Source of the DNA: a virus
Lineage: Duplodnaviria > Heunggongvirae > Uroviricota > Caudoviricetes
Strand: one strand, 5' to 3'
Virus record (IMG/VR): IMGVR_UViG_3300002641_000714
DNA length: 64,000 nucleotides
The position numbers were made by a program, and so were the translations under genes. This document shows, piece after piece, positions 3,390 through 60,029 of the stretch (within the stretch, counting starts at the first letter, position 1; every line of letters begins with the position of its first letter). Below the pieces are notes generated by a model. That model was given only the letters and a program-made list of their open reading frames with translations, was not told the DNA's origin and made no database searches.

Positions 3390-3454
3390 CTTAATTAAAT
3401 CTTATAAATATTTAAAAATAATTTGTATCTATAATATTAATGGGAACAATATAT

Positions 3455-3910
3455 ATGACATCTGATAGTGAAACCAAATTGCGATCAATATATTCAAATT
3501 TAAAAAATTATTATATATTAGATGTATAGTCTTTTATAAAAAGTTTAAATTTAGATATGTCAAAAGCAAGTAGTATTTTTATTATCAATGATGAAATTTA
3601 GTCATTAATGACATAGCAATTAAATCTTAAAAAATATAAAGGTGTTATATATATTAATAAACATTTATCAAAAGATTTATTTAATTCTTTTAAATATCAA
3701 TTTAAAAAGGATGGTAATGATATTAGAATAGTACTTATTGATAATGGACAGTTTCCAAAACATTAGGATATAATGGATGTTTTTGATGAAGTTATTTTTT
3801 ATGACAGATTTAAGAAAAATAAAATTGTAGAATTTAATGGATTTGAAAAAAATTCTAATGATATTATTAATAGTATAGATATGGATGAAAATAATTTGTA
3901 TAATGAATAA
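3455..3910 (+). CDS. Hypothetical protein whose gene contains 5 in-frame TAG codons (read as Gln)
   Basis: ATG at 3455. A 152-codon frame with no TAA or TGA but 5 TAGs (3527, 3599, 3614, 3764 and one more). Translation is protein-like (MTSDSETKLRSIYSNLKNYYILDVQSF...). The TAA stop overlaps the next ATG (taATGg at 3908-3912). Missed by the standard-code ORF track. Confidence 0.55.
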
Positions 3911-5304
3911 TGGAAGATGATATATCAATTGGTAGTTTAGACACATTAAATAGTTTACAATCACTAGAAGAACAACAAGATATTTAGCCGGATTTATCAA
4001 AAGTTTAGGAATTACTTGCTAATATTAATACAAATGTTGAATAGGTTAAAGGTATTTCATTTAACCCAGATGGTTCATATGTTGTTAAACAAAGTAAAAC
4101 TCTTCGACAATTAATGGCGATGGTTCAGCAATGGTGGCATATGGTTTGTAATTTAAAAAATATTGATTTTTCTGATTTAAATAATTATGTTGAAGAACAG
4201 CCTGAAGAAAATGGAACAGTTTCTATTAATGCAATGGTTTATATGAATGCTGCTTTTGATATGTATGGTCGTGCATATAGACAAGGTATGGTATGCCCAA
4301 TATGCGGAAAGAAAGCAAGATATTTACCGCCGGGTGGATATTGCTCTACAAAATGTTTACTTCAGGCTGCCAAAAATAAATCACTTGCATTTTTAATGGC
4401 ACCTAATGAAAAATATAAAAGTTTATAGCAAACAGTTAATCAATTATACGGCATTTTAAAACATACGAATTTAATTATTAATGCATTAGTAATGATTCCA
4501 GATATTATTAGAGAATTGGGGTCATTTCCAATTGAATATCGAAATTTTGTTCAATGCAAAATTGCTGAAGGTTTTACAGATTTACAATGTTTAATATAGG
4601 AAGCAATGGTTTATAAAACACAATTATTGCAAAAAATGTTAAAACCCGTTATGACTGGTGTTATTGCAAAACCTGTAGCAACAGGAATGCAAACAATTAA
4701 TTTAATTGTACAATCATTACAAATTGCATAGGAGGCTTTTTAGATTGCATATGACACTATTAAAATTATTATAGATAGATTATCTATTCCAGAAATAGCA
4801 CCGGGATTGGTTATTCCCGCATAGTCACATGCATGGGCATTAACACCTAGATCATTTATTTGCCCTACATTTCCGCCAACGGGAACACCTGATTTAGGTA
4901 AAATATTTGTTATTTTACCAGGCGCAATGAAAAGTCCGCTATACCCTTCATCATTACAAAGTATTAATACATAGTCAATTGATGAAATTGTATAGAAATT
5001 ATTTCCACCATTAACACCAGCTGATTATTATTTAGAACCTGAATTATTCCAAATACGATATTTATTTAGTGATCAAAGCGATTTGGTATCATCTGTAATA
5101 TAGCAATTAGAAGATTTATTAAGATTTGGCCCAGATTATATTCCGGCTTTTGAAAATTTATTACCTGTTAAAGCATATACTGTTAATGGTGATAATGTAT
5201 ATCTTCCAAATGTCGCTTATATATGGTTTGTTTTAGGCCTACTTGATTCGTGGGCACCACATAGTATGGCATTAGTTGGAAATATATTTAATCCAACTGC
5301 ATAA
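3910..5304 (+). CDS. Hypothetical protein (464 aa) with a CxxC...C zinc-ribbon-like segment and 13 in-frame TAG codons
   Basis: I translated it by hand from ATG 3910 to TAA 5302-5304 in one frame. The track's ORF 4114..4428 is an internal fragment bounded by TAGs. There is a TGA stop immediately upstream (3904-3906). Contains GMVCPICGKKARYLPPGGYCSTKC. Confidence 0.6.
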
Positions 5305-5360: not shown

Positions 5361-5690
5361 TTAATAACCAAGTTCAGCGCCAAGTGCCCCCATCACCAAT
5401 GAAGAAGTTAATAATTTTCCAAGAGTTCCATTTTGATCAATACCAAGTATTTTACAAATAGCTCTCATAATTGCTGGGCCTATAGTAGAACCGGCGACAC
5501 CACCAAGTAAAGCAGTAAATAAACCTTCATCCATTATGTCATCAAGTGATTTTCCTTCTTCTTGTGCAATTGCTGCTGATTCAACAATATAATTAAATAA
5601 TTTTTTTGCATTTTGCACTTCTTTAACAGAAACACTTTTTAAATCAACTCCTTCGAATAACTCATTAGTTGCATGTGAATGCTATATCAT
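5361..5690 (-). CDS. Small glycine-zipper membrane protein (1 in-frame TAG)
   Basis: The track ORF 5361..5618 starts at a GTG. The frame stays open upstream through one TAG to an ATG at 5688-5690. C-terminal GLFTALLGGVAGSTIGPAIM...MGALGAELGY is glycine-zipper-like. Confidence 0.45.
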
Positions 5691-7260: not shown

Positions 7261-8337
7261 CTAATCAAATAATTCATTATTTAATGCTTCTGCACATTCT
7301 TGTATAATTTTTAAACCATATTTTCCAAGTTCGGTTACTATCTCATATGCTTCCTGAATTTGTTCTTTTCTAGGATTATATGCTCTGTATCCCATTGACA
7401 TAATTTTTTCTTCATTCGTCATATCATCAGATATTTTGGTATCCATAATAAGTTTCATATGATCCAAACCATACTTATTAACTAATGCATTCCATTGGGA
7501 TTCTGTAAATACACGAGTGCTGCTATTGTATAATGGGTGGTTTGTATAATATTGAATACCATAAGGAACTTTTGTTGTATTTTTACCATTAGTAACAATA
7601 AAGCATATACACAAATTATACCAATCGATTGACACATCTTTAATAGTCCATTTTGCATATACATCGGTATAATTAATCTTTTCGCCGGTATTCATATCAT
7701 TTATAAATGTAGGGTAATAAAACTTATTTCGCTCGGTAAATAAACAACGGCATTTATTAGTGGCAAATACTAATTTAGAGCCTCTAAGAGATACACAATA
7801 TTCAAGATGTTTCTCCACAATAAACGGAAAATCCATAAACATATCAAAACAAATTTCGCTATCACCATATGCATGATATATGAATTTCAATTTATCACCG
7901 GTATTAAGATCTACCAAATGAAATACCCATGTATATTTATAACTTTTAGGATGATATGACATTACTTTCATTACATAAAAACGGTGTGCTTCTATGTGGC
8001 GTTTATGTGTCCCTAACAATTTGCTATCTCTATAATCAGAATAATCAGATTTATAATTATAATATGAATTATATTCAGACGTTTCATTATCATTAAAGGA
8101 ATAGTCTTTAAACCAATGATATAATTCACAACTTAAATCACCAGATTCATAACGGGAACGAGTAATAGGTAAAAGATATAATATCTCACCTTCGTATGCT
8201 TTAGCATTTTCAAATTGGTAATTGCATGTTTCATCAAAATCTGCATTAGCAAATACTGCAATTGAACTAATAATAATTGATAAGATAATAACTAACCGTT
8301 TCATTATGATTCCTCCTATTTTTAATTTAATATGCAA
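7261..8337 (-). CDS. Secreted hypothetical protein with a signal peptide
   Basis: Internal MKRLVIILSIIISSIAVFA looks like a signal peptide, so the true start is likely near 8304. The stop is TAG (7261-7263). If TAG is read through, there are 5 extra codons to a TGA at 7246. Confidence 0.55.
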   Translation of the reverse strand: MHIKLKIGGIIMKRLVIILSIIISSIAVFANADFDETCNYQFENAKAYEGEILYLLPITRSRYESGDLSCELYHWFKDYSFNDNETSEYNSYYNYKSDYSDYRDSKLLGTHKRHIEAHRFYVMKVMSYHPKSYKYTWVFHLVDLNTGDKLKFIYHAYGDSEICFDMFMDFPFIVEKHLEYCVSLRGSKLVFATNKCRCLFTERNKFYYPTFINDMNTGEKINYTDVYAKWTIKDVSIDWYNLCICFIVTNGKNTTKVPYGIQYYTNHPLYNSSTRVFTESQWNALVNKYGLDHMKLIMDTKISDDMTNEEKIMSMGYRAYNPRKEQIQEAYEIVTELGKYGLKIIQECAEALNNELFD

Positions 8338-8372
8338 AATTAATACTTTTTATTTAAAAGAAAAAATAGAAG
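8320..8372 (-). promoter_or_regulatory. Conserved early/middle promoter-like motif (partial instance)
   Basis: Contains ...gcaaaattaatactttttatttaaaag-aaaaaatagaagc, a member of the ~55-nt family described in the findings. It sits immediately upstream of the 7261..8337 gene. Confidence 0.4.
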
Positions 8373-8418
8373 CTAATTTTTTATTAACTTCTATTATTTT
8401 CTAATATTTGATATCTAA

Positions 8419-9932: not shown

Positions 9933-9994
9933 TATTTTAATTTAACAATACAAAATTAATACCTTATAATTAAACTAAAAAATAGAAGCTTTAA

Positions 9995-11847: not shown

Positions 11848-13035
11848 ATGAATAAAAAGATAATATATGAATCTATAATGAGTTTAGTTGCTAAACAAGT
11901 AAAAAATGTGCTTAATGAGTATAGAACTGCCGCACCTGAACATAATATAGATATAACAGATCTTAAACAATTTTTAAAAATGACTATACAGGAATGGATT
12001 TATAAAAAATTTACATCTATTCCAAATTTAACAAATAGATTTTATAGTTTTACATATGAACCTTATGGCAAATTGACTCTTTATATTGGTTCGGTATATT
12101 CAAATCAACCTATAAAACTAACAATTTCTCCTTAGCTTGGTTATTATAATATTAGAGAAGATTTGTAGAAAATTCAAGAATATATTAAAAAACATAAAGA
12201 ATTTAAAATTATATCTTCTAAAATTCAAACATTATAGCAAATACAAGTTGAATATAATTTTAAAAAGGATGATGATTTACAACTTGCACTGGCAGATGCC
12301 GAAAGAAAATTTGATATGGAAGTTGATGCAACTGATACTGATGAATATGCGCCAACAGTAAGAGACTGGATGAAAATGATTGATTATAAAAATAGACATT
12401 CAAATCCAGAAAGAGTTGCAAATTCATGTAAAGATAATAATAAAATAGTTGCCAGATATATTATTGCAAATACATTAGGATGGAAAGAAGCAGTTAAAGC
12501 ATTTAAAGATAGAATATATGATTTGAATATATTAAATGATGCACAGCTTGAAGCATATAGAAGAAAATATGCAACATATAATATACCTGAAGATATAAAA
12601 GAATTAATAGTTGATCTTCAAGAATATGATGAAAAGGGTGGTTTTGGAGAAACAGAACATTCTGAAATATTTCCTGAAAATCTTAAAAAATATATACATT
12701 AGAATAATAATATTAATTCTTATAAAATTGAATTAATTGATGGGGCTCCAGTTAAAGAACATAGAACACAAAGACATAGAATTGATGCACATCATTATGA
12801 TTATCATTCAGATACAGTTCCTCAAGGAACTATTGATCAGGCTAAAGTAACTTTTAAGCTTTTTGATAATTCTGAAGTAGAATTATATTATGTATATAGA
12901 AAAAAGAATGGAAATTATGTTGGACGTTTTTATAAAAGCAAAATTATATTATATGATTGGGATGAATATAGACGGTTATTTAATGCAACATCTGCTGTTC
13001 ATACATTAAAATGGTGTTTTGATGAAGAAGATTAA
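11848..13035 (+). CDS. Leader-family-2 protein (395 aa) with 4 in-frame TAG codons
   Basis: N-terminal MNKKIIYESIMSLVAKQVKNVLNE leader. The track ORFs 11848..12135 and 12316..12702 share one frame and are joined through TAGs at 12133, 12166, 12235 and 12700. Ends TAA at 13033-13035. The late-type motif aaaaataaatatatta is upstream (11812-11828). Confidence 0.6.
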
Positions 13036-14944: not shown

Positions 14945-15313
14945 TTATTTTAAAATACGTTCAAAAAAATGTTTCTTTATATCTTCATCACTGTTATAAT
15001 CAATGAAAACACATTGAACTGTAGTTCTTGCTCTCAGATTTCGTTCTCCTATGTTTATATTTGGGTCATTTTTAAAGGCAATTAATTTTTCAATATCATT
15101 TTTATTAATATGCACATATCCTTTATTATCTTGTACACCAAATATTCTAATAAGTCCTCCATAGAACATTATTTTGAAATCGTCATCAGAAAGATGTGAT
15201 AACACTTCCGGAATATTATATTGGTCATCTGCAATAAATGAACCATCTTCATACCACTTAATTATCTCAGACAATAATCTAAATGAGTTATCAAAAAATA
15301 TGTTTCGTATCAT
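14945..15313 (-). CDS. Hypothetical protein
   Basis: 122-aa ORF with a TAA stop. Confidence 0.55.
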   Translation of the reverse strand: MIRNIFFDNSFRLLSEIIKWYEDGSFIADDQYNIPEVLSHLSDDDFKIMFYGGLIRIFGVQDNKGYVHINKNDIEKLIAFKNDPNINIGERNLRARTTVQCVFIDYNSDEDIKKHFFERILK

Positions 15314-15354
15314 TTTATATAAAATTAAAATTATTTACTTAAAATAAAAGTTAT

Positions 15355-15480
15355 GGACCAAAATAACGTATTTGCTGCCCACGCAGCAGTTTGCCATTCT
15401 TTATCTATTAAATAACATCCAATAGCAAAAATAGAAATTGCAATTGTTACAAGACTTAAAAATTTAAGGGTTTTCATACT
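15355..15480 (-). CDS. Small membrane protein (about 41 aa)
   Basis: MKTLKFLSLVTIAISIFAIGCYLIDKEWQTAAWAANTLFWSI. The early promoter-like motif is directly upstream. Confidence 0.35.
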
Positions 15481-15506
15481 TTTAATATTTAAATGTTAAT
15501 ACTATC

Positions 15507-15560
15507 TTTTTTAATTACGATGCAAAGATAATACTTTTTTCTTAAATTAAAAAATAGAAG
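15507..15560 (-). promoter_or_regulatory. Conserved early/middle promoter-like motif
   Basis: ttttaattacgatgcaaagataatacttttttcttaaattaaaaaatagaag. On the coding strand this reads CTTCTATTTTTTAATTTAAGAAAAAAGTATTATCTTTGCATCGTAATTAAAA, ending about 25 nt before the ATG. Confidence 0.55.
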
Positions 15561-15567
15561 TTAATAT

Positions 15568-15732
15568 TCATCTGGATAAAAACCTAATACGATCATTGGT
15601 TCAAATACCTCATCATGGTCTTGTGTGACATCATAAAGATGTGCATTGTCATATGTTTCTGCTTTTATTGTACACTCACTTGGGTCAAAACCATTTTCGT
15701 TTGCATAATCTATTAAATCTTGTAATGTCATA
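15568..15732 (-). CDS. Small hypothetical protein (54 aa)
   Basis: MTLQDLIDYANENGFDPSEC... It sits between two promoter-motif instances. Confidence 0.35.
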
Positions 15733-15760
15733 ATTTTAAATATTTAAAAGTTAATATTAT

Positions 15761-15811
15761 TTTTAATTACGATGCAAAATTAATACTTTTTTCTTAAATT
15801 AAAAAATAGAA
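15761..15811 (-). promoter_or_regulatory. Conserved early/middle promoter-like motif
   Basis: ttttaattacgatgcaaaattaatacttttttcttaaattaaaaaatagaa. Confidence 0.55.
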
Positions 15812-15824
15812 ATTAAAAATAAAA

Positions 15825-15840
15825 GGTGGAATTACCCACC
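15825..15840 (-). terminator. Terminator hairpin after the RNA-ligase gene
   Basis: On the minus strand GGGTGG-gtaatt-CCACC is followed by TTTTATTTTT. Confidence 0.55.
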
Positions 15841-15846
15841 CTTCAT

Positions 15847-17529
15847 TCAATTTTCTTCAGAAGAATCGTCCGTGTATCGTTCTTGCATTTCAATATCATT
15901 AGAACGTCCTTTATCAATATCTTCTGCTTCTTTTCCGAGGAACTTCAAGCACTTAAGTTTAAATGCCTCTGCCATTGGATCATCATTGATTCGAAGAACA
16001 ATGCCTTCACGTGGAAGTTTATTTTTACACAATGGTTCATCCATTTCCATACAGAATTTCTTATCAGATTTCATTGCATTCAAAACATTTTCATGCCAAT
16101 GATTTTTAATATCAATTTCAGGATACAAATTCTTCATATCTCCATTATACAAAATTGGAATAGGAACAATTTGATCTGCATAATGAGTTCCGTGCATATT
16201 ATCAAGCTCTTTAAGAGTAAAAATAAGTGCTCGCTCAGTATAATCGTGAACATCTTGAACATTGAACTCAAATACTTGTCCATCTTCCATTACTCGTTTG
16301 ATACGATAAATCATAAGTTTATTCTCACCAGGTTTGCAACCATAATCGTAAACTTTACCTCCAAGAGATTGAATACCAGAAGTACTGTCAGGAAGATAGC
16401 CTACAATTTCACCATATAAAGTCATTCCTTGCGGAATAATACCTTTAAGGATATCATAGTATTGCTTCCATACATCAACTCCATAAAAACCGTCTTTTTT
16501 AGATTGAATAGGATTTTTAAACAAGTCTTTAATTTTATCCCAGAAAGTTTTAGGTGTTCCGTCTTCATTCAATACACGTTTGTTTTTCTTAAACAATGAA
16601 CGCAGTGTACGTGTAATATGATTATACCAAGTATAAATGTATTGATATACAGCTGCAAGCATATTTTGATTTTTAATTACACTACGAGAACTATAAATTA
16701 CATCATAATCTTCAGTAGTAAATTGCAAGAACTTTGGCAAATATACAAATAGTTTTGAATATAACCCTCTATATTTCGGCTTATGAACTTTTACATTACC
16801 AAAAATTGCTGATGTTCCATGAAGCTTTACTGAAATTGCAACTGAAGTTTCAGGCTGCAATCTTCCAATCTCACGTTGAAGTTGTTGAGTATCATAGTGG
16901 AATGCAAATTGTCCAGGAATCATACGATCATATTTTTTAATTTGTTTTTCATGACGTCCAACTCGATTTCCACGTTTCTCTTCTTTAACTTCAGGAACAT
17001 ATGCCTTTACGAACAAATCACCATTAATGGTATCAAAATCTTCACCAATATGTTGAGACCAATCAAAATGCTCAATAAGAAAAGTCTCATTGTAGGTACT
17101 CATTTGATCAGGTGAAATAAGATATCCCATAGACATAACGCCCTTAATTCGCTTCATACGAACACGACATTTCTTATCAAAGTATCCACGATTAGCTGCA
17201 ATATATGATTTAATATCATCTTCAGATACCCTGTCTGCTTTCATTTGCTCTACATGTTTTTGAATTTCAGAATAATTTGCATTAAGTTCCTCATCCTGAA
17301 ACTCATTGTTATAATGCAAAAAAAGTTGATCAAGCTGGCACTCATTAGATACATAAATCATAATATCGCCCTCTTTAACGCGATCTTTACGAACTACAAT
17401 TTCTCGACCTTCAACCATTACAGTGGCGAGAAAATCAGTTCCTTCAATTGGAGTCAATTCACCCAATTGAACAACAGTGGCACAATACTCATGTGACATG
17501 TCTTTAGATTGTGATAGTAAATTTCTCAT
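15847..17529 (-). CDS. Putative RNA ligase (Rnl2-like nucleotidyltransferase)
   Basis: Motif I VKLHGTSAIFGNV (T4 Rnl2 has KIHGTN), an EGIVLR motif-IV-like element, and an N-terminal extension. TGA stop. Confidence 0.5.
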   Translation of the reverse strand: MRNLLSQSKDMSHEYCATVVQLGELTPIEGTDFLATVMVEGREIVVRKDRVKEGDIMIYVSNECQLDQLFLHYNNEFQDEELNANYSEIQKHVEQMKADRVSEDDIKSYIAANRGYFDKKCRVRMKRIKGVMSMGYLISPDQMSTYNETFLIEHFDWSQHIGEDFDTINGDLFVKAYVPEVKEEKRGNRVGRHEKQIKKYDRMIPGQFAFHYDTQQLQREIGRLQPETSVAISVKLHGTSAIFGNVKVHKPKYRGLYSKLFVYLPKFLQFTTEDYDVIYSSRSVIKNQNMLAAVYQYIYTWYNHITRTLRSLFKKNKRVLNEDGTPKTFWDKIKDLFKNPIQSKKDGFYGVDVWKQYYDILKGIIPQGMTLYGEIVGYLPDSTSGIQSLGGKVYDYGCKPGENKLMIYRIKRVMEDGQVFEFNVQDVHDYTERALIFTLKELDNMHGTHYADQIVPIPILYNGDMKNLYPEIDIKNHWHENVLNAMKSDKKFCMEMDEPLCKNKLPREGIVLRINDDPMAEAFKLKCLKFLGKEAEDIDKGRSNDIEMQERYTDDSSEEN

Positions 17530-18259: not shown

Positions 18260-18527
18260 TGCAGCTTTGTCTTCACTATGTAATCCGTCAAACCAATTCT
18301 TTATGTCAGGATTTTTACTTATATCCTCAACTGTTTTTATTTTTTAATTACAACGTAAAAATAATAAAAATGGAAGTTAATAATTTCTTTGTTTTCTTTC
18401 AGGTTTTAAACTAACATTAGTTTCAAATAATTCACAACTACAATTTTTTGATTTTTCGCAGTTATTAAATAAGTTGCATATTTTACAATACTGAGATTCC
18501 ATAATTAATTATTGTATTTTAATTTTA

Positions 18528-21873: not shown

Positions 21874-21886
21874 AAAATTATTTTAT

Positions 21887-21938
21887 TTTTAATTTCGATG
21901 CAAATTTAATACATTTTTCTTAAATTAAAAAATAGAAG
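21887..21938 (-). promoter_or_regulatory. Conserved early/middle promoter-like motif
   Basis: ttttaatttcgatgcaaatttaatacatttttcttaaattaaaaaatagaag. Confidence 0.55.
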
Positions 21939-21939
21939 C

Positions 21940-23046
21940 TTAATTAGTTTCCATTAAATATGCTTTAATAAATTCATCAATATTTCCATTCATAACAGAA
22001 TCTACATCAGAAGTTTGATAATTTGTTCGATGATCTTTTACACGTTTATCATCAAAAACATAACTTCTAATTTGTGCGCCCCAGCCAATTGGCATCTTTT
22101 TATTTTCTATTTCTGCTTGAACTTGACGACGTTTTTCAAGCTCTAATTCATATAATTGGCTGCGCAAATGTTGCATTGCAATTTCTCTGTTTTTCGGTTG
22201 GTCTCTTGATTCTGTACTTTCTGCTACCAATTCATCTTCCTGTCCGGTTAACGGATTAATAAACTTATAATGAAGTCTTACCCCAGATTCAACTTTATTT
22301 ACATTCTGCCCGCCTGCGCCAGAAGATCTAAATGTATCCATTGTAATATTTGCAGGATTAATATTAACTTCAATAGAGTCATCTACTAATGGACATACAA
22401 ATACACTTGCAAAACTTGTCATACGTTTTCCTTGTGCATTATATGGACTTACCCGCACTAATCTGTGTATACCTGTTTCTCCTTTAAGATGGCCATATGC
22501 AAAATCTCCATATACATTAAATGAAACAGTTTTAATTCCTGCAGTATCGCCTTTTTGATAGTTTGTTATTTCTCCTGTAAAATTGTGATTTGCAAAATAA
22601 GATAGATACATTCGCATTAACATTTCGGCCCAATCTTGTGCTTCAGTTCCACCTGCTCCAGCCACAATTTTTAAAACTGCAGGCATTTTATCCTCATCAT
22701 TATTTAGCATTGTTTGCATTTCATATTTAGAAATCGTTTCTAAACATGTATTATATAATGATTTGGACTCCTCTTGAGACAATTCTTCATCAGATAACAA
22801 TTCTAAATAAGTAATGTTATCATCAGTTAAATTAATATCATATAGCAAGTTAGATAAATTTTTCCAATCTTTCGAAATTTTTTCTGCCATTTTTGCATCA
22901 TTCCAAAAAGCTGGATCATGCATTCGCATATTCAACTCATTTTCTTGATTCTTTTTATCTTCAAAATGGATACAATTTTTTAAATATTCAAATCGCTTTC
23001 GAAGTTCTTTAACATTAATATTTGAATTTAACATTTTCATTCCCAT
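21940..23046 (-). CDS. prfB: Class-I peptide chain release factor, RF2-like
   Basis: Has the GGQ motif (SSGAGGQNVNKVESGVRL). The tripeptide anticodon region reads RLVRVSPYNAQGKRMTSF (SPF-like SPY, not the PxT of RF1). Continuous ORF with no +1 frameshift site. Confidence 0.8.
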   Translation of the reverse strand: MGMKMLNSNINVKELRKRFEYLKNCIHFEDKKNQENELNMRMHDPAFWNDAKMAEKISKDWKNLSNLLYDINLTDDNITYLELLSDEELSQEESKSLYNTCLETISKYEMQTMLNNDEDKMPAVLKIVAGAGGTEAQDWAEMLMRMYLSYFANHNFTGEITNYQKGDTAGIKTVSFNVYGDFAYGHLKGETGIHRLVRVSPYNAQGKRMTSFASVFVCPLVDDSIEVNINPANITMDTFRSSGAGGQNVNKVESGVRLHYKFINPLTGQEDELVAESTESRDQPKNREIAMQHLRSQLYELELEKRRQVQAEIENKKMPIGWGAQIRSYVFDDKRVKDHRTNYQTSDVDSVMNGNIDEFIKAYLMETN

Positions 23047-26400: not shown

Positions 26401-26417
26401 ATTTTATAATTTTTTAT

Positions 26418-26468
26418 AATTTTTATGTTGCAAAAATAATACTTTTTATTTAAATTAAAAAATAGAAG
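26418..26468 (-). promoter_or_regulatory. Conserved early/middle promoter-like motif (variant)
   Basis: ttttatgttgcaaaaataatactttttatttaaattaaaaaatagaag. Confidence 0.5.
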
Positions 26469-26556
26469 TTTATTATTTTAATTATTATAATTTAAAATGG
26501 GAAAATGTTTCACAACATCTTCCCACCCAATATATAATTAAAAATAATATCATTTT

Positions 26557-30480: not shown

Positions 30481-30526
30481 ATTAAATTATAATTAATTTT
30501 TGTAATTTGTTTCTGTATATGTTTAA

Positions 30527-30766
30527 TTAATCACATTTATATTCGTTAATTAACTCATCAAGATTATAAAATACAACTCTTCCATCACATGGCTGATAAA
30601 ATCGTACATCAATTAAATATGTATATTTTAATGTACAATTTATATCATTCATTTCATCTGCAACTATTCTTGAATATAGTGAACCTCCCATTGTATTAAA
30701 TAGTTCAGATTTCTTTTTTAATTCACAAAGTAAATCATAAATATCTTTTTTGTTTTCTATATTCAT
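30527..30766 (-). CDS. Hypothetical protein
   Basis: 79-aa ORF with a TAA stop. Confidence 0.45.
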   Translation of the reverse strand: MNIENKKDIYDLLCELKKKSELFNTMGGSLYSRIVADEMNDINCTLKYTYLIDVRFYQPCDGRVVFYNLDELINEYKCD

Positions 30767-30776
30767 AATTATAATA

Positions 30777-30829
30777 TTTTTAAATTCGATGCAAAATTAA
30801 TACTTTTTTCTTAAATTAAAAAATAGAAG
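30777..30829 (-). promoter_or_regulatory. Conserved early/middle promoter-like motif
   Basis: ttttaaattcgatgcaaaattaatacttttttcttaaattaaaaaatagaag. Confidence 0.55.
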
Positions 30830-30832
30830 TCA

Positions 30833-31441: not shown

Positions 31442-31453
31442 AGTTGATATTAT

Positions 31454-31505
31454 TTTTAATTACGATGCAAAATTAATACTTTTTATTTAAATTAAAAAAT
31501 AGAAG
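31454..31505 (-). promoter_or_regulatory. Conserved early/middle promoter-like motif
   Basis: ttttaattacgatgcaaaattaatactttttatttaaattaaaaaatagaag. Confidence 0.55.
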
Positions 31506-31570
31506 TTAATAAAATATCAAAAAACACTACCTAAAATTAGGTAGTGTTATATTATCTATTAATTATTTCA

Positions 31571-32395
31571 TTATCGTCTAATATTCCACATATGTTGGGA
31601 AGAACCATCAAACAATACATCAATATTTGCGCCTTGCTTTTGTTCAATAATAGACCATGCACGTAATTGAATATATTGATCCGGAGACAAATTCATTTCA
31701 CGCATATACGCTTTATCAGCTTTTGCACGTTGTTTTTCCGCTGATTCTCGAACAGTTTCCATTTCTTTTAAACGTTCTTGAGTTTTAGTTTTCTGAATAG
31801 CAGCCGCGGTAAGATTCATTTCTTTCTTTTGTTCCTCATTAGGACTAGCTTTTCCTGTTGTGACAGAAATAATTCTAATTGGCATATCAGCATCTTGTGA
31901 TTTATACTCGACATATTTACGCATATATTCTAATACAATAGAGTCAATTTTTGCATTTACTTCACGATTAGAAATCAAATCGAATGGGCTATACAATGAA
32001 ACACAATCCCTTACTTTATTTCGATAAACCTGTTGAATATTATTTTTATACCAATCGCTTCCATAATTTTGTAATAGAATTGGTGTTTTACCTTTCTCAA
32101 CCTGTATAACAATATATGTGCTAAAATCCAAAGGTGTATTATCATTTGAAAAAATATCATCAAATGTTTCATCATATTGTACTGGAACAATTTTAAACGG
32201 AACACCATATGTAGTTACTGCACACCATTCCAGACCGGTACTAACAGGTGATTTATCTACACCACCATGGCCAAAAAACCAGGGTTGCATAACAAGTACA
32301 GCTTCCTCATCAGCGTTAACCTCTACTGAATGACATGAAGACAAAGTAAACATTGCAAATACTGCAATACTGAAAAAATAAAAAATTTTCTTCAT
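31571..32395 (-). CDS. Lipoprotein with an SPFH/band-7-like coiled region
   Basis: Signal peptide plus lipobox (FTLSSC). TAA stop. Confidence 0.5.
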   Translation of the reverse strand: MKKIFYFFSIAVFAMFTLSSCHSVEVNADEEAVLVMQPWFFGHGGVDKSPVSTGLEWCAVTTYGVPFKIVPVQYDETFDDIFSNDNTPLDFSTYIVIQVEKGKTPILLQNYGSDWYKNNIQQVYRNKVRDCVSLYSPFDLISNREVNAKIDSIVLEYMRKYVEYKSQDADMPIRIISVTTGKASPNEEQKKEMNLTAAAIQKTKTQERLKEMETVRESAEKQRAKADKAYMREMNLSPDQYIQLRAWSIIEQKQGANIDVLFDGSSQHMWNIRR

Positions 32396-32418
32396 AATTA
32401 AAATAAATTTTATTGTTT

Positions 32419-33081
32419 TTAAATAATATTAATTTGACATGATTTCATTACTTCAAGTGCAGCTTTGTGTTTTTCTGGAGTAACTCCAGCACAACATTTG
32501 CTATCCACTGTAATCTCTGCAAAATTATATGTATATGCTTTAAGAATAAGTGCATTAGAAACTACACAAATATCTGTACAGAATCCACACATTTCAATTT
32601 CCATTGGAATATAATTAATATGCCCATTATTTTTAATAATATGATTAATAAATCCATTGTTTTTAATATGTTGAAATGTTCGGTCTTTTTCAAAATTTAA
32701 AACGGTGTCTTTAAGAGTTGATGCAATTTCACCATCTTCAATATAAACTGGATCAACAGAACCAAATGTATTTTTACGAATATATTTAATTTCACATCCT
32801 TGTTTAGCTTTTACTAAGACTGCTTGATAAATAGATTCTTCAATTCGCCACCCTTCACTATTGACCATACAATGTTCAACCGGAAGTTTTTTACCTTCTG
32901 ATGTATCAAGATAATCAAAATAATGAGTGTCCATTGTTAGATAAATTGCATCACCATCAAATGATAAAATTTTGTCAACAATATTTAGAACTGCTTTTTG
33001 AGCATCTTTATTTGCTAATGTGCCAGTAATAAAATCATTCTGTGCATCAACTACTACTAAAACTTTAATCTTATTTTCCAT
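32419..33081 (-). CDS. pncA: Nicotinamidase (isochorismatase family)
   Basis: VLVVVDAQNDFITG and HCMVNSEGWRI match E. coli PncA (LLLVDLQNDF, HCVQNSEGAQL). Catalytic-Cys block IEMCGFCTDICV. Confidence 0.8.
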   Translation of the reverse strand: MENKIKVLVVVDAQNDFITGTLANKDAQKAVLNIVDKILSFDGDAIYLTMDTHYFDYLDTSEGKKLPVEHCMVNSEGWRIEESIYQAVLVKAKQGCEIKYIRKNTFGSVDPVYIEDGEIASTLKDTVLNFEKDRTFQHIKNNGFINHIIKNNGHINYIPMEIEMCGFCTDICVVSNALILKAYTYNFAEITVDSKCCAGVTPEKHKAALEVMKSCQINII

Positions 33082-33083
33082 AA

Positions 33084-33878
33084 TTAAATTAATGTTTTTG
33101 CTTTTTCTAACAAATCTTTAAAACAATTCATAAAATTCTCTGCCATTTCTTTTGTTGGAAAAGATAATGGTTGTGATATTGAAGAATATTGCATAATATT
33201 AATTTTGTTGAGCCGATAACCAATACACCAGTATACTTCAGCATTATTCCAAACAGGCTTCCAATCACGAATCCATGCTTTACGCAATCTAATTAAGCGT
33301 CCAAATGCAATAAGTGCATCTGCATCATCCCCATCAAAGCCGTGTGCAAATTTTGGAATATAATGCGTATGCTTTTCATATGGATAAAAATTATCACAGT
33401 AATCATCCCATGTTTTTGGATATTTTGGTTTTAATTCATCTTCAGTAAAAGCTCTAAGAGCAAATTCACGGAGTTTTCCACCGGCATTATACATTTCTTG
33501 TGCTTCTTCTAATGTAAGTTTAAATGCCCGTGTATTTTCATCTATATCACCATATCGATTTTTAATAACTACTCCATCTACCATAACTTTGTTTGCACAA
33601 TTTTTAAATTTATTTGCAGAGTCAATAGTATTTAATGTAGTTTTATCAAACTCCAAAGTTACGGTAGAATTAACAATTCCATTATTAGATTTAGGTATAA
33701 AATTATCTACTTTCTCTAGTTGGTATGAATAAAAATATGTATTTGGCAACTCTTTAAGTATATATATATTTCGTTTATCACCATTAATATATCTTACATA
33801 ACAAATTGTATATATTTTATTATTTGCCTGATCTTTGCGGTGAACCTTATCGCCAACTTTAAATTTAGATTTTTCCAT
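33084..33878 (-). CDS. Hypothetical protein
   Basis: 264-aa ORF with a TAA stop. Confidence 0.55.
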   Translation of the reverse strand: MEKSKFKVGDKVHRKDQANNKIYTICYVRYINGDKRNIYILKELPNTYFYSYQLEKVDNFIPKSNNGIVNSTVTLEFDKTTLNTIDSANKFKNCANKVMVDGVVIKNRYGDIDENTRAFKLTLEEAQEMYNAGGKLREFALRAFTEDELKPKYPKTWDDYCDNFYPYEKHTHYIPKFAHGFDGDDADALIAFGRLIRLRKAWIRDWKPVWNNAEVYWCIGYRLNKINIMQYSSISQPLSFPTKEMAENFMNCFKDLLEKAKTLI

Positions 33879-33905
33879 AAGTTTTTAAAATTTTAAAATT
33901 TATAA

Positions 33906-34316
33906 TTAATTATCTGTAATATCTTTAGTTTCTCCACATTCATTACATTTAATATTTACACAATGTCCTAATCCTCCCGGAGTAATTTCATATGTAAATT
34001 GTTGTTTCATTGTAGATAAGAATGTTTTACTTTGTTCTGAGTCTTCAATATGGGAATGCGTATTTTTAAATTCCATTGCTGCTTTAGTTTCATTATCTGT
34101 TAATTCAAAAACAATATTTGTTTTCCCATTTTGATAACATGGTTCCAAATCAATATTTTTTCCAGTATTTGGATGTCCGCATATTGGACATTTCCATACA
34201 TATTCGTCATTTGCAACTTTTGGCATTCCAAATTGTAAAGCAGACTCATGCATATCATCAATACTTGCAACAAAATCTCTATTACAATATTCACAATGAC
34301 ATTTATAATATGTCAT
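33906..34316 (-). CDS. Hypothetical zinc-ribbon protein
   Basis: CHCEYCN...CPICGH...CNECG Cys pairs. TAA stop. Confidence 0.5.
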   Translation of the reverse strand: MTYYKCHCEYCNRDFVASIDDMHESALQFGMPKVANDEYVWKCPICGHPNTGKNIDLEPCYQNGKTNIVFELTDNETKAAMEFKNTHSHIEDSEQSKTFLSTMKQQFTYEITPGGLGHCVNIKCNECGETKDITDN

Positions 34317-36485: not shown

Positions 36486-36495
36486 AACTATATTA

Positions 36496-36548
36496 TTTTT
36501 AATTACGATGCAAAATTAATAAAATTATTTCAAACTAAAAAATAGAAG
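36496..36548 (-). promoter_or_regulatory. Conserved early/middle promoter-like motif
   Basis: ttttaattacgatgcaaaattaataaaattatttcaaactaaaaaatagaag. Confidence 0.5.
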
Positions 36549-36561
36549 TTAAAAAATAAAA

Positions 36562-36585
36562 GAGGAAACTCTTTCGAATTTCCTC
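36562..36585 (-). terminator. Terminator hairpin downstream of the putative capsid gene
   Basis: gaggaaa / tttcctc stem. On the minus strand it is followed by TTTTATTTTTT. Confidence 0.55.
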
Positions 36586-36632
36586 CTATTATCGAAATTA
36601 TTGTAATAATTTCTTAAGCTTTAACTTATTAA

Positions 36633-38552
36633 TTAAAGTCCTACGCAGTTTACATAGAATGTAATATATTGTGTTTCAGGATAGAAACCTGCATCTACAA
36701 GAGCGTAACGAGATTTAATCATAAGTTTTGGAGCCATTGTACCTTCAGCGATAATACGTACAACTTCAGCCATTACATATGGGCAGAAGTGAACACCTGG
36801 TTCATCTTTACCACCTTTACGACCAACTAATACACGAGTATCATTAGCTTTCATCAATGGATCAACGTAAACAGTTAAACCGCAAACAGTACCGATTGGG
36901 TAAAGTTGACCAGCAGTTTGTTTAACAGTATTCTCAATTGGTGAGAAGCTATAGTGTGCATCAGATTGTAACAATGTAGCAACACGGATATTAGTTACAA
37001 CGAATGTAGCAGCACCGTAACGACCACGTTGTTGGATCCAGTTAGAAGCAGCTAAGATGTTTGTGAAGATTCTCTTGATAAGAGTGTCACGGTTCTCGAA
37101 GTTAGCACCTTCAATAACACCCATTGGAAGTACTGGTATGCTAACCATTCTTTGAGAAGCATAACGTTGTTCTTGTTCAAGATATTCACCTTCTGGAATT
37201 GCATATGTAGCCCAGTCAAGATTACTAGGATTTTCTGCATCGAATTTTCTGAAGTTTAAGTTTAAGCATGCGCCAAGACCTTCAACTTCTACCATACGAG
37301 CGTGGTTTTTCCAACCAAGAGCAAACAAACGAGATGTGATGTGACGGTTGATAGTTTGAGAAAGTTCGTTTACACCAGCATTCTCAACAATCTTTAATAC
37401 ATCAATACCCCATTGTTTTTGGAGGTCAGTAACTTGTTCTTGAGTTACAGCACAAGCAACTTGGATAGTACCAACTTGGATGTTCTTTGTGAAGAGTTGT
37501 AATGAGATTTGACGAGCAGGAGTCATTTCACCTGTTGCACGGCTCATTGGTTCAAAAAGAACAGTACCATCTTGATATGTACCAGCCCATGCATCTTCAT
37601 CATGGTCACCAGCACCAGCAAAACCAAGAAGTTGATCCTCTAACATAGAGATTAATTTAGCACCTCTAACTGTAAGAGTAATTGCAGGAGTTTCACTTAC
37701 AAGTTCAACATCCTTTAAGAATGTTTCACCAAGAGATTGGTCGCCATCAACAACTTTGAACATTGGATCACCATCAATACGGCTCCAACCAATAAATTCA
37801 ACTGTAAGATGTTTATCAGCATCCTCAAATCTTACACCAGCTTTTAAACCAGCTTGTTCAAGCTCATATTTGTATTTAACAACTGGATCTGAACCTTGTG
37901 GAACAAGAACAGCTTTAAATGCATGTGGAAGTCCATAAAGACGGAAAGCAGCTGCGCCATTAATTGGTTTTTCTTCATTTGGCCAATTCTCTGGGAATGC
38001 TTTTGTAGAAGAATCAACAGCCATACGACGTTTGTTATAAACATGTGGATTAGCGCTGAATCTATCATATGCAGGAGTTGCACCATATGGTTGTTTGCTA
38101 CCGCTATATACATAGTCCATATAAGGAAGAACACCACTAGGACCTGCAAGAGGAGTAGTATTTACAAGTTCAAAACCAATAGTTTTAGCAGCAACCTTCA
38201 TTGCTAATGGAAGAAGTGCAGGGAATTTGTCACCTGAACCAAGAATTTTATCATCAGCCTATTGTGCGCCGGTCATTGCAGCCATTTTAGGAGCAACTAC
38301 ATTACCAACACCAAGAGTATTGTAAAGGTTGTTATATGGAGCATATGCACCACCGAACTCTGAGAATGCGTTAGCACCCATTTCAGGAGCAGATTCATTT
38401 AAGGATTTAGCTGTGTTGTGAGCAAGTTGACTCATCCAAGCAAGCTTTTCTGGATCCTTAACACCAGTTGTACGAGTAATCATTGGAGCCCAAGCTTCAT
38501 TGATCATTTGCTCTGCATTTTTAGCAGTAGCTTTTTGATTGTTTACTTTCAT
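36633..38552 (-). CDS. Putative major capsid protein (639 aa, 1 in-frame TAG)
   Basis: The track ORFs 38259..38552 and 36633..38201 share one frame ((38552-36633+1)/3=640) and are joined through the TAG at 38259-38261. The region is visibly more GC-rich with biased codons (ggt, gca, aac, ttc, atc), as expected for a highly expressed structural gene. The Gly/Ala-rich N-terminus is typical of processed capsid proteins. The late-type motif is upstream. The functional call is tentative. Confidence 0.5.
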
Positions 38553-39551: not shown

Positions 39552-39661
39552 GTTTTATTGATATTTTGTTGATTAACATTCTTTCTTTTATTATTTATTA
39601 AAGAATTAAAAATAAAAATTTTATTTTTTAATAATATATAAAATTTAATAAATATATTGAT

Positions 39662-40483
39662 ATGAAAAACTATAAACAAATATTAGAAGCAATTAATCGT
39701 GGTATTAAATTTGCATTAGACGATTTTGAAGATCAAGATGATATTCAAGGTTAGGATAATAGTAAAGTTAAGTATAAAGGCGGAATTAAAGACTGGTTAG
39801 ATTTAATGAGTGATGTTGTTGATTTAGGACTACCTTCAGGAACTCTTTGGTGCAAGTATAATTTGGGATGTGAAACTGAATTATTAAATGAAGAAGGTGA
39901 AAATAGTGTAGCTGATTGGTGGCAAGGTGATTATTTTGCCTGGGGTATTAATCAGCATAATGATTTTTTTACATGGGGGTCTTATGATTATTCAGACTGG
40001 GCTATAAAAATGTTGCCTAATTTAAAAACAGAAAATTGGGTTCTTAAATTATTTAAATATTGTTATGAAAAAGATACAGTTGCATCTATATGTGATGAAC
40101 CTGATAATAAAATGAAACTTGATTTGGAAGATGATGCAGCTTATGTAAAAAATAACAAATACTGCATACCGTCTACAGAACAATTTCAAGAATTATTAGA
40201 TAATACAAAACATAAATTTGTTGCAAATTATAATAATATTTCCGGACTAAACGGTATATTATTTGCATCTATCTATAATCAAAATACAATATTTTTTCCG
40301 CTTGCAGGTTATATGAATGAAGAAAATATCAGAAGAAAAAATACACAAGGTTTTTATTGGACATGTGATTTAAGCCCAAAATATCAAACATGCGCAAATT
40401 CATTTAATTTAACAAAGAAAACAGTAGAAGTTGGAAGTTATAGACGTGACCAAGGTTGTTCAATAAGGCCTGTATTAAAATAG
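39662..40483 (+). CDS. Leader-family-1 protein A with a DUF1566-like domain (1 in-frame TAG)
   Basis: ATG at 39662. Leader MKNYKQILEAINRGIKFALDDFEDQDDIQG, then TAG (39752-39754) exactly where paralogs E and F have Gln (QGQ), then DVVDLGLPSGTLWCKYNLG, YFAWG, IPSTEQFQELL and a C-terminal SIRPVLK. Confidence 0.65.
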
Positions 40484-40501
40484 TAAAAAAAACTCTAAAA
40501 T

Positions 40502-41341
40502 ATGAAAAATTATAAACATATATTAGAAGCTATAAATAGAGGAATTAAATTTGCATTAGATGACTTTGATGATAATGAAATTCAAGGTTAGATTAGTAGT
40601 AAAGTTAATCATCAACATGGAACTAAAGAATATCTAGACTTTGTGAATGAAGTTGTTGATTTGGGGCTTCCTTCAGGAACTTTGTGGTGCAAATATAACT
40701 TAGATGTTAATCCTAATCAGTTAACTAAACCTGAAGACTGGTATGGAAAATATTATGCATGGGGCGAATTAGGAGGAAATAAAACTAATAAAGATGGTAT
40801 AATTTATTTTTATTGGTCTAATTATAAATTTGGAAAATATGATTTAACTAAATATTGTAATGATTCAGAACATGGATTAAATGGTTTTACTGATAATTTA
40901 ACAGAACTTCAACTAGAAGATGATGTTGCATATCAAAACAAAAAACTTTATAATTATAAATTCCATATACCAACTAAAGAACAGTGTGAAGAATTATTGA
41001 AATATACTAATAATTATTGGGTTGTTAATTATAATCCTAATAAAACTATTCATAATCCAAAAGATGATGGCGGAATTCAAGGTTTGGATGGTGGAATATT
41101 TGAAGGAAGAAATGGAAATCAATTGTTTATTCCAGCAGCCGGATTCCGATAGGATTTATGTCGCTATCATGTTGGTTTTTATGGTCACTTGTGGTCTTCT
41201 AGTCTTTACTTAAAAGATTGTAGCAATGCTTACTGCTTAAGCATTAATTCAAACATTATCAATATATACAATGAGGAGCATACATATAATTATGGAGAAC
41301 GTATATATGGTTATAGTATTCGTCCAGTATTAAATTTATAA
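40502..41341 (+). CDS. Leader-family-1 protein B with a DUF1566-like domain (2 in-frame TAGs)
   Basis: Leader MKNYKHILEAINRGIKFALDDFDDNEIQG-TAG. The track ORF 40643..41152 is internal. Read-through of the TAG at 41150 gives the conserved C-terminus ...GYSIRPVLNL and a TAA at 41339-41341. Confidence 0.65.
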
Positions 41342-41354
41342 ATTAATTATTTAA

Positions 41355-42554: not shown

Positions 42555-42564
42555 AGAAAATATA

Positions 42565-48524: not shown

Positions 48525-48619
48525 GTTCTAATTACAATTTTACTTAATTATTATATATAAAAATAATGAATTGTTTCTTAAATAAATATATTGTATAAAT
48601 AAAAAATATAATTAAATAT

Positions 48620-51859: not shown

Positions 51860-51956
51860 TATTTAATAAAACATTTTTATATTATAAATTATATACAAAA
51901 ATTTGAAATGGTTTAATCTAAATAAATATATTGATAATAAAAAATAATTTAATAAT

Positions 51957-59959: not shown

Positions 59960-60001
59960 AATTTTATATATACATTTCTATTCAATATATTTATTAAAAC
60001 A

Positions 60002-60029
60002 AATGACTCTAGAAAAATCTAGAGTCATT
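60002..60029 (-). terminator. Terminator hairpin after the gp32-like gene
   Basis: Perfect 12-bp stem aatgactctaga / tctagagtcatt with a 4-nt loop. On the minus strand it is followed by ttgtttt and then the late-type motif of gene F. Confidence 0.6.

Follow-up and report, generated by a model that had tools for sequence, protein, structure and literature searches.

A repeated promoter-like motif of a Lak-related phage as a probable portable gene-start cassette

T4-like myoviruses carry small composite cassettes known as PeSLs, in which a terminator is combined with an early promoter (Arbiol et al. 2010, PMC2839356; Comeau et al. 2014, PMC4122927). A PeSL consists of an AT-rich upstream part, a promoter for the host sigma factor, a translation start region and the ATG (PMC4122927). 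These cassettes cluster in hyperplastic regions of ORFans, where they are found at the junctions of indels and replacements and leave degraded half-copies (PMC4122927, PMC2839356). Recombination between tandem copies has been observed experimentally, in RB49/phi1, to produce deletions or minicircles (PMC2839356, PMC4122927). Here, we describe a motif of about 58 nt that is repeated in a 64,000-nucleotide stretch of a virus of the class Caudoviricetes (IMG/VR record IMGVR_UViG_3300002641_000714; the whole stretch is hereafter called the window), with one of its copies at 15505-15560 on the minus strand. By analogy, the motif is best placed with the PeSLs and the T4 early promoters, in a new phage clade and a new host phylum. 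It is probably, at about 0.72, a portable gene-start cassette: a host-type promoter with a leader, sometimes fused to an upstream terminator, at whose edges gene cassettes are gained and lost.

There are several points of likeness to PeSLs. Many near-identical copies lie between genes in each genome, co-oriented with the genes; an AT-rich upstream part is followed by what appears to be a primary-sigma-type promoter, a translation start region and an ATG; and in many copies a stem-loop terminator stands immediately upstream. The motif occupies an ORFan-rich variable region and not the structural or replication core, tandem copies surround single small open reading frames (ORFs), decayed half copies occur, and the motif is found at insertion, deletion and replacement junctions between close relatives. 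The carrier phage is itself distantly T4-like (gp23 capsid, gp32 and gp46/47-like genes). By contrast, the grammar of the motif is that of sigma-ABfr, with a -7 TAnnTTTG, where PeSLs have the -35/-10 pair of sigma-70, and the leader lacks a Shine-Dalgarno (SD) sequence. This Bacteroidota promoter grammar and the SD-less leader are expected host adaptations. Also in contrast to PeSLs, the stem-loop is facultative (~40% of copies), the upstream (-33) element is replaced by a T-run with a lineage-specific CTTCTA, and this invariant box forms the 3′ arm and T-tract of a stem in about a quarter of the copies, an overlap that has not been described for PeSLs.

The early promoters of T4 depend on the host sigma-70, are unusually strong and have a consensus that extends well beyond the -35 and -10 elements. 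They are present in dozens of copies, with a conserved UP-like A/T region and spacer, and drive small host-takeover genes of mostly unknown function as infection begins. The motif can be likened to them, with differences in host phylum and sigma grammar; it is, moreover, a single conserved block of ~58 nt that includes the translation leader, and it is known from sequence.

In Bacteroidota, the sigma-ABfr consensus has TTTG at -33 and TAnnTTTG at -7 (PMC7366714, PMC6847099), and is credited in these two papers to Bayley et al. 2000; the -33 element is weak or undetectable in some members of the phylum (PMC7366714). An A-rich initiation region that lacks an SD has been described for Bacteroidetes (PMC6847099). 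The motif shares with these promoters the exact -7 element with its free nn, the CA after TTTG, the A-rich SD-less leader and the spacing, as its T-run lies at the same distance from the -7 element (19-20 nt) as the host TTG from TA. It differs in having no G in the -33 element, an extra invariant CTTCTA and a G at about -16. A precedent for a Bacteroidales phage promoter that is read by the RNA polymerase of the uninfected host, and that can exceed native promoters, is P_BfP1E6, described as a strong Bacteroides fragilis phage promoter and used as a synthetic-biology part (Whitaker et al. 2017, as presented in PMC11554821 and bioRxiv 2025.03.18.644028). It comes from an unrelated small phage and is compared here by description only. 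Lak-type megaphages, to which the phage of the window is related, are uncultivated and, to our knowledge, nothing is known about their transcription. Neither the Lak paper (PMC6784885) nor the preprint on recoding (bioRxiv 2021.08.26.457843) mentions promoters.

The repeat and its parts

On the minus strand, positions 15560-15505 read CTTCTATTTTTTAATTTAAGAAAAAAGTATTATCTTTGCATCGTAATTAAAAAAGA, which bears out the sequence given for 15507-15560 in the original prediction, an earlier reading of this DNA from its letters alone. The 21-nt core, AAAAGTATTANYTTTGCATCG, is matched eight times in the window with up to three mismatches, always on the minus strand, against 0.04 matches expected from shuffles. 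When the window is searched with an nhmmer profile of nine copies, precisely these nine are returned, at E from 1e-9 to 2e-15, and the best further match has E = 0.6. In the numbering used here, C1 of the box is position 1, and negative numbers such as -42 are relative to the putative start site. The C1 positions of the intact copies are 8372, 9988, 15560, 15812, 21938, 26468, 30829, 31505 and 36548, in agreement with those listed earlier, and each copy is named below by its C1. Instead of the "at least ten" copies first proposed, there are nine intact ones and one remnant (copy 18376, E = 1). The single orientation and the intergenic placement both hold: all nine copies are on the minus strand, and all nine fall in the gaps of a map, drawn from simple greedy ORF calls, that is 92% coding (chance probability ~2e-10). 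The motif does not recur at a similar frequency inside genes, further nhmmer matches being noise. Each intact copy is aimed at the next gene downstream, whose ATG lies 26-46 nt past the G of TAnnTTTG and ~9-30 nt past the end of the conserved block, roughly the 15-30 nt of the original estimate. All copies of the window are found within 8.3-36.6 kb, among mostly Pfam-less ORFs, and none in its replication and structural part.

To extend the comparison, IMG/VR contigs were scanned with exact patterns of either half of the motif and then by a profile search; the comparison genomes are, in effect, fragments retrieved through the motif itself, and their loci carry L numbers below. Together, the window and low-GC (26-33%) contigs hold 86 unique copies, with at least 18 in a contig of 262,727 bp, 11 in one of 380,519 bp and 10 in one of 120,854 bp. 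In all 17 multi-copy loci, the copies share one strand. Information content is high from about -1 to +56 and disappears in the flanks beyond about -8 to +57. Since the flanks carry no information, the copies are separate sites and not a single orthologous locus that has been sampled repeatedly. A diverged version is present in Prevotella phage Lak-B1, where it reads TTTTTT-N18-TATCTTTG-TATYG-TTAATAAA..AACAATTAAAAATA..ATG and keeps the T-run-to-TA spacing of the window motif. Five co-oriented copies of this version are found in 50 kb on the plus strand, at 66, 21177, 23719, 23840 and 47867 of L209 (MK250020.1 100000-149999). In a blastn search of the motif against phages, the relevant matches are weak and restricted to Lak-B genomes; those in Lactococcus, Listeria and other phages were rejected as coding sequence or low-complexity chance matches.

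Read from 5′ to 3′, the motif would begin with TAA or TAAAG, often the stop codon of the preceding gene. This would be followed by the box CTTCTA-TTTTTT, at about -42 to -31, an 18-nt A/T spacer (AATTTAAGAAAAAAGTAT), the sigma-ABfr -7 element TAnnTTTG with its CA, and T-C-G, in which G43 is the probable transcription start. The last part would be an SD-less leader of ~21-23 nt, (T/A)AATTAAAAATAA.., which would place A at -15 to -12, -6 and -3 of the ATG. At the upstream end, of 73 cases, the TAA stop of the preceding ORF adjoins C1 in 18 and is no more than 3 nt away from it in 31, and position -1 is A in 82 of 84 copies. CTTCTA is invariant among the copies and stands directly upstream of the T-run.

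The -7 element is present as TAnnTTTG in all nine window copies, with TA and TTTG fixed and nn free (AT, TC, AA or TT). Among filter-passing copies, TAnnTTTG stands at the exact offset in 79, and TAnnTTTA is found in 9. This pattern of fixed and free positions supports, computationally, the earlier proposal that the core is the -7 element of a Bacteroidota sigma factor. The comparison with host promoters that had been recommended then used 117 further candidates of the form TTG-N19/20-TAnnTTTG, drawn from 854 kb of bacterial DNA that is mostly from Bacteroidota. The -7 element, the CA and the spacing of the motif match this sample; the -33 G does not. After TTTG, the host sample has C in 58% and A in 52% of cases, versus 85% and 99% in the phage copies, and GCA is thus host grammar and not an addition by the phage. 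T-C-G, 3-5 nt past the -7 G, is not enriched in the host sample, and C42/G43 is a plausible -1/+1 pair. Thus, of the GCATCG flank, for which an additional factor-binding site had been suggested, the CA is ordinary host consensus and the TCG is best read as start-site context. The G at about -16 (GTAT) is likewise not enriched in host promoters. Matches to a 19-mer of the motif come for the most part from Bacteroidota genomes. The Bacteroidota matches precede tRNA genes, among others, and show a TTG peak 19-20 nt upstream of TA, which in motif coordinates is the phage T-run (T7-T12).

When the leaders are aligned on the ATG, A reaches 72-89% at -15 to -12, 69% at -6 and 68% at -3, and T reaches 88% at -1; an SD-like sequence occurs in only 4 of 75 leaders. 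The distance from the -7 G to the ATG has its mode at 26-28 nt and a second mode at 42-49 nt. On these features, a translation-initiation region of the Bacteroidota type makes up the 3′ third of the motif. This role, like the indel junctions of the cassettes described below, was not part of the original prediction.

Proposed code switch, cassette junctions and terminators

Genes led by the motif are strongly depleted of in-frame TAG. The first ORFs behind 82 copies contain 5 such codons in 11,043 (0.45 per 1000; 5 of 82 ORFs), versus 454 in 106,520 (4.3 per 1000; 141 of 433 ORFs) in other ORFs of at least 80 codons from the same loci. In the window, TAG is used as a sense codon, 1-15 times in frame per gene, at 3440-5304, 11848-13035 and 39662-43501 on the plus strand and at 36633-38552, 52523-55837 and 57210-60028 on the minus strand. 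These recoded genes include those for the capsid and the sheath, while the motif-bearing block (13071-36485, minus strand) is essentially without in-frame TAG. The gene for RF2 (21940-23046) lies inside the TAG-free block, as the last gene of the unit headed by copy 26468. This kind of recoding pattern, together with a code-switch model, has been reported for Lak and other recoded phages (bioRxiv 2021.08.26.457843; PMC6784885). RF2 would be part of the proposed code-switch machinery, and the window fits the model of code-15 recoding of late genes. In relatives, the motif is found ~275 nt upstream of tRNA arrays (L013, L052 and L076). Thus, TAG depletion, the RF2 unit and the tRNA arrays suggest that the motif drives genes expressed under the standard code. 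The first ORFs behind the nine window copies have no Pfam match, which is typical of early takeover genes. Of the early or middle transcription originally proposed, expression before the late stage, whether immediate-early or middle, is supported by TAG depletion.

The tRNA arrays of the relatives extend over 3182-4291 in L013, 7987-9634 in L052, 5455-7219 in L055, 2743-3089 in L076 and 5620-5776 in L068, and include tRNAs for Trp, Lys, Val, Arg, Phe, Cys, Ser and Leu; no CUA suppressor tRNA was identified in them. Some Rfam tRNA matches in these relatives are 107-157 nt long and were missed by ARAGORN, and may contain introns like those reported for Lak phages. In two loci, pairs of motifs 198 nt apart have no ORF behind either member (5598-5656 and 5796-5855 in L072; 4573-4629 and 4769-4827 in L068). 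They lie just downstream of a tRNA-like 3′ end (GGTTCGAATCC) and perhaps drive small non-coding RNAs.

A second upstream motif, AATAAATATATTGA, is present at 39647-39660 and 51921-51934 on the plus strand and at 59982-59995 on the minus strand, with one-mismatch versions at 48581 and 62462 (plus strand). Its distance to the following ATG is 1-65 nt; the genes concerned lie outside the early block and several are TAG-recoded, and a hairpin terminator often precedes the motif. With up to two mismatches there are 30 matches, against 13.8 +/- 4 expected. It resembles the late promoter of T4 (TATAAATA) and is a candidate late-promoter class.

Differences between close relatives coincide with the edges of the motif. 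The window was compared with loci of the relative IMGVR_UViG_3300011005_000050, at 85-92% identity. L062 has no counterpart of 14949-15753, a segment with three ORFs and copy 15560, and 3 nt separate the junction from the 3′ edge of copy 15812. L002 (89-92% identical) lacks 30514-30831, which is exactly copy 30829 and its 79-aa ORF, inserted in the window right behind the upstream stop codon; it also lacks 31506-33929 (2.4 kb, three genes), with the junction at the 5′ edge of the box of copy 31505. In L039 there are indels on both sides of copy 26468. Conversely, a motif-led insertion of 1.4 kb is present in L009, L070 and L049 at window position ~52460; its junction and the edge of the motif are 1-3 nt apart in L070 and L009, and 32 nt apart in L049. 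In total, 5 of 38 breakpoints lie no more than 4 nt from a motif edge, versus an estimated ~0.2 expected. At one of the junctions (junction A), the type of terminator switches with the upstream cassette while the motif stays constant. Thus, the terminator goes with the unit upstream, and the motif with the gene that it precedes.

The individual copies of the window, all on the minus strand, differ mainly in what lies upstream of them. Copy 15560 (15505-15560; E 2e-15), with the box CTTCTATTTTTT at 15560-15549 and the -7 element TATCTTTG at 15530-15523, precedes the ATG at 15477 of a 48-aa ORF; its box directly adjoins the TAA stop of the upstream ORF, without a hairpin. Its tandem partner, copy 15812 (15757-15812; box TTTCTATTTTTT; -7 element TAATTTTG at 15782-15775; E 4e-14), is 252 nt away and leads a 56-aa ORF with its ATG at 15731, so that the pair flanks one small ORF, an arrangement also seen in L074 and L072. 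Immediately upstream of copy 15812, a hairpin with a T-run (15817-15848; GGGTGGGTAATTCCACC..TTTT; folding energy, dG, -20.3) ends a 560-aa gene (15847-17529) that has a weak PHA02142 OB-fold Pfam match alone. Copy 8372 (8317-8372; -7 element TAATTTTG at 8342-8335; E 6e-12) precedes the ATG at 8304 of a 347-aa ORF and is the only window copy with an SD-like AGGAGG in its leader. Here a terminator-like hairpin at 8367-8393, which reads TAGAAGTTAAT-AAAAA-ATTAGCTTCTA and then TTTTTT (dG -12.1), takes its 3′ arm and T-tract from the box of the copy, with all six box bases paired.

Copy 9988 (9933-9988; -7 element TAATTTTG at 9958-9951; ATG 9923, 88-aa ORF; E 1e-9) is the most diverged of the intact window copies (..TTTGTATTG..) and adjoins the stop codon of the thymidylate-synthase-like gene. 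Copy 21938 (21883-21938; -7 element TAAATTTG at 21908-21901; ATG 21873, 662-aa ORF; E 2e-14) comes directly behind the RF2 stop codon, in an intergenic gap of only 66 nt in all. Copy 26468 (26413-26468; -7 element TATTTTTG at 26438-26431; ATG 26400; E 1e-10) leads ~10 co-directional genes, and ~30 nt upstream of it, behind the NAPRTase gene, there is an imperfect hairpin at approximately 26498-26528 (TGGGAAGATGTT-GTGA-AACATTTTCCCA plus TTTT), read by eye and not called by the terminator scan. Copy 30829 (30774-30829; -7 element TAATTTTG at 30799-30792; ATG 30766; E 6e-14) heads the 79-aa ORF mentioned above. Copy 31505 (31450-31505; -7 element TAATTTTG at 31475-31468; ATG 31441, 202-aa ORF; E 1e-14) has a GC-stem hairpin with a T-run 17 nt upstream (31523-31548; AACACTACCTAATTTTAGGTAGTGTT; dG -14.6), which terminates the upstream run of eight genes. 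Copy 36548 (36493-36548; -7 element TAATTTTG at 36518-36511; ATG 36485, 162-aa ORF; E 5e-12) is the first downstream of the TAG-recoded capsid gene, at the start of the TAG-free block; just upstream of it, another GC-stem hairpin with a T-run (36560-36587; AGGAGGAAATTCGAAAGAGTTTCCTCTT; dG -17.6) terminates the gp23-like capsid gene. The tenth copy (18321-18376) is decayed: its box (CTTCCATTTTT) is joined almost directly to TATTTTTAC-GTTG-TAATTAAAAAA, so that the box and the -7/leader half are kept and ~18 nt of spacer are deleted. It lies in a 295-nt gap without an ORF behind it and, judged by eye, is a genuine remnant.

Two statements of the original prediction have to be revised in the light of these copies. 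Transcription units span from 1 to ~10 genes, and are not restricted to the one- or two-gene units that had been proposed. A hairpin was also said to precede each copy, and five of the nine do have one; the other four (9988, 15560, 21938 and 30829) have none and directly adjoin the upstream stop codon. Called GC-stem/T-run terminators precede copies 15812, 31505 and 36548. The hairpins at 11335 and 13044, two of the examples originally given, are indeed terminators, but neither is followed by a copy of the motif.

In the wider collection, hairpins were sought by folding each box along with the 50 nt that precede it. This gives a hairpin with dG <= -9.7 kcal/mol in ~20 of 86 copies, where (A/G)CTTCTA provides the 3′ arm and T6 the tail, as in AATAGAAGCT-AAAAATAA-AGCTTCTATTTTTT of L064 and in window copy 8372. 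A complement of CTTCTA, allowing G-U pairs, is found upstream in 19 of 86 copies, versus an estimated ~3.4 expected. A separate GC-rich hairpin with its own T-run is present in another 12-14 of the 86. The box seems, then, to double as a terminator arm in a minority of copies, which cannot explain its invariance in the majority. Hairpins of the form TAGAAG..CTTCTATTTTT also stand alone, with no promoter half, in L013 (index 2131 and 10283 on the minus strand, 4315 on the plus strand), and one of them adjoins a tRNA gene. Thus, the box sequence is also an ordinary terminator arm in this phage group.

Competing explanations

If the motif is a portable gene-start cassette, the unmodified host RNA polymerase with its primary sigma factor would initiate at it early in infection and transcribe units of 1-10 genes and, in relatives, tRNA arrays. 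Motif-led genes would then be translatable in the standard code of the host, ahead of the reassignment of TAG. Some of the boxes would also pair with an upstream arm of the TAGAAG type and supply the T-tract, ending the upstream transcript. The near-identical copies of ~58 nt, distributed across an ORFan-rich region, would provide homology for recombination, and promoter-plus-ORF cassettes would be inserted, deleted or swapped at the edges of the motif, as proposed for T4-like PeSLs.

Several points weigh against this explanation. The TTTG expected at -33 is not there: TTTTTT takes its place, and G is found in 0 of 84 copies. CTTCTA is absent from the sampled host loci in any promoter context, and from Lak-B1 as well; CTTCTATTTT has 13 chance occurrences in the 854 kb of bacterial loci, 0 of them with a -7 element. 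Without a -33 G, and with no CTTCTA in hosts or Lak-B1, recognition may need more than the host sigma factor. An adjacent stem-loop is present in only ~34 of 86 copies (~40%). Some of the supporting figures also have limits. The patterns with which copies were collected account for part of the conservation seen in the 84-copy table at the box, positions 1-11 included, and at TA..TTTG; the genome-wide scan with the 19-mer has ~70 chance matches by estimate, and its value is in the bias of taxon and context, not in the count; the "other ORF" control for TAG relies on a crude greedy ORF map; and BLAST alignments tend to end at the edges of shared repeats, which sharpens the apparent coincidence of the junctions, for which recombination is the presumed cause. 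Finally, the activity of the promoter, its start site and its timing are deduced from sequence features.

Perhaps the motif is instead a middle-type, activator-dependent promoter, in which the host sigma factor would read the -7 element while a phage factor (MotA/AsiA-like) or a phage sigma factor would read CTTCTA-T6 in place of the -33 TTG, so that the sites would fire after the first wave of phage proteins. This is the main rival, though it seems unlikely on the whole. G at -33 is missing from all 84 copies and present in about half of the sampled host promoters, but some Bacteroidota have a weak or undetectable -33 element (PMC7366714), and the -7 region and CA of the motif closely match host promoters. 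The box is invariant and phage-specific, with no occurrence in a promoter context in 854 kb of mostly Bacteroidota DNA; nevertheless, Lak-B1 keeps the T-run, spacing and -7 element without CTTCTA, so the box is not needed for the conserved architecture, and in many copies its role in a terminator explains it. T4 middle promoters follow the same logic, with a good -10 element and a phage box in place of the -35. Cassettes of a related type, the PmSLs, are built on Mot boxes in phage nt-1 (PMC4122927), and sigma factors have been reported for Lak phages (PMC6784885). Among the ~50 window ORFs that were scanned, however, no sigma factor, MotA/AsiA-like protein or DNA-binding protein was recognised, the window being part of a genome. 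Regarding the CTTCTATTTTTT flank, for which the original prediction had suggested an additional factor, its lineage specificity is confirmed, the binding of a factor is possible, and in about a quarter of the copies it is a terminator arm.

It is very improbable that the motif is a recombination or mobility sequence, such as a site for a phage recombinase or homing enzyme or a MITE-like element, whose resemblance to a promoter would be incidental. The coincidence of indel junctions with its edges, the close likeness of the copies over 58 nt and the decayed copy at 18376 would all suit such a sequence. However, orientation is strictly tied to the downstream gene, the distance to the ATG is fixed, copies precede tRNA arrays, and conservation follows the grammar of a promoter and a translation-initiation region, with nn free and A at -3, -6 and -12/-13 of the ATG. 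The architecture is, moreover, kept in Lak-B1 despite the divergence of its sequence. A transposon or MITE proper was considered and rejected, as there are neither terminal inverted repeats nor target-site duplications.

An element that acts in the RNA and not as a DNA promoter, namely a terminator or processing site of the upstream gene or a structured regulatory leader, is scarcely credible either: about a quarter of the copies do have a terminator-like hairpin whose 3′ half is the box and T-run, and the stand-alone hairpins of L013 have no promoter half, but ~60% of copies have no hairpin partner, the -7 half and leader are A/U-rich with no evident stem, no Rfam family reached threshold on the window, and the conservation pattern of TAnnTTTG is a signature of DNA recognition. 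Other candidates were rejected. A scan for E. coli-type sigma-70 promoters was not enriched over shuffles (135 vs 152; 153 vs 143), so that the motif is not of that type, no operator with dyad symmetry was found, and a replication or packaging repeat was rejected because of the dispersal of the copies and their coupling to genes.

Host, neighbouring genes and significance

The window has a GC content of 28%. It encodes a Gp23-family capsid protein, a tail sheath, a gp32-like SSB, SbcC/SbcD-like proteins and a family-B polymerase, with Pfam domains for each of these (Gp23 capsid, sheath, gp32-like SSB, SbcC/SbcD-like and PolB), as well as RF2, NAPRTase, a CCA-adding enzyme, a thymidylate-synthase-like protein and many ORFans. 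By tblastn, the capsid protein aligns along its whole length with that of Prevotella Lak megaphages at 60% identity, with more distant matches in T4-like cyanophages and other myoviruses. Judging from these genes, this is a huge Lak-related phage of gut or rumen that is T4-like, with a distant relationship to T4. In a megablast search of 24 kb against INPHARED 2025 phages, a single 500-nt match was found, at 72% to Lak-A2/C1, and the phage is absent from that collection. The Bacteroidota host proposed in the original prediction is supported by the capsid identity to Lak, the occurrence of the 19-mer mostly in Bacteroidota genomes and the SD-less A-rich leader, and the host is very probably a Prevotella or another member of the Bacteroidales. 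A tRNA scan of the window found no tRNA.

Other features of the window touch the motif less directly. The ORF for the family-B DNA polymerase (43537-45084, minus strand, 515 aa) covers only part of the Pfam domain, with its best stretch at profile positions 147-203 of 453, and the gene may be split or interrupted. TAG-recoded paralogues at 39662-43501 (plus strand) and 57210-60028 (minus strand) have a common N-terminus, MKNYKQILEAINRGIKFALDDFEDQ..IQGQ, which is followed in some by domains of the DLGLPSGTLWCKYNLG type and in others by repeats of the FNGDISNWNVSNV type. The conserved coding sequence of this N-terminus contains TAAATTTG, and spurious matches to TAnnTTTG arise in these paralogues because of it. 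A second, small family of paralogues, with the N-terminus ..KKALYESIMTSVAK(Q/E)VKK(T/V)LNE.., is found at 48620-49123, 49251-49661, 51957-52403 and 11848-13035, all on the plus strand among core genes of the minus strand.

As a consensus, the motif would mark the starts of transcription units across a clade of phages of 100-550 kb. It would also separate the genes of the standard code, expressed before the switch, from the TAG-recoded late genes, which makes the code-switch programme of infection testable. PeSL-style cassettes, with the gain and loss of genes that goes with them, would extend past the T4-like phages of Proteobacteria to another phylum and another promoter grammar. The 58-nt module is, in addition, a candidate for a strong and compact expression part for Prevotella and Bacteroides. 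A bolder proposal, and a doubtful one, is that CTTCTA-T6 is at once the docking site of a phage factor that redirects the sigma-ABfr holoenzyme and the terminator arm of the preceding unit, with the cassettes as the recombination substrate for the exchange of ORFans; we know of no sigma-appropriation system in Bacteroidota. If this were the case, the cassettes would help Lak-like megaphages to accumulate and exchange ORFans, and would thereby contribute to their very large genomes.

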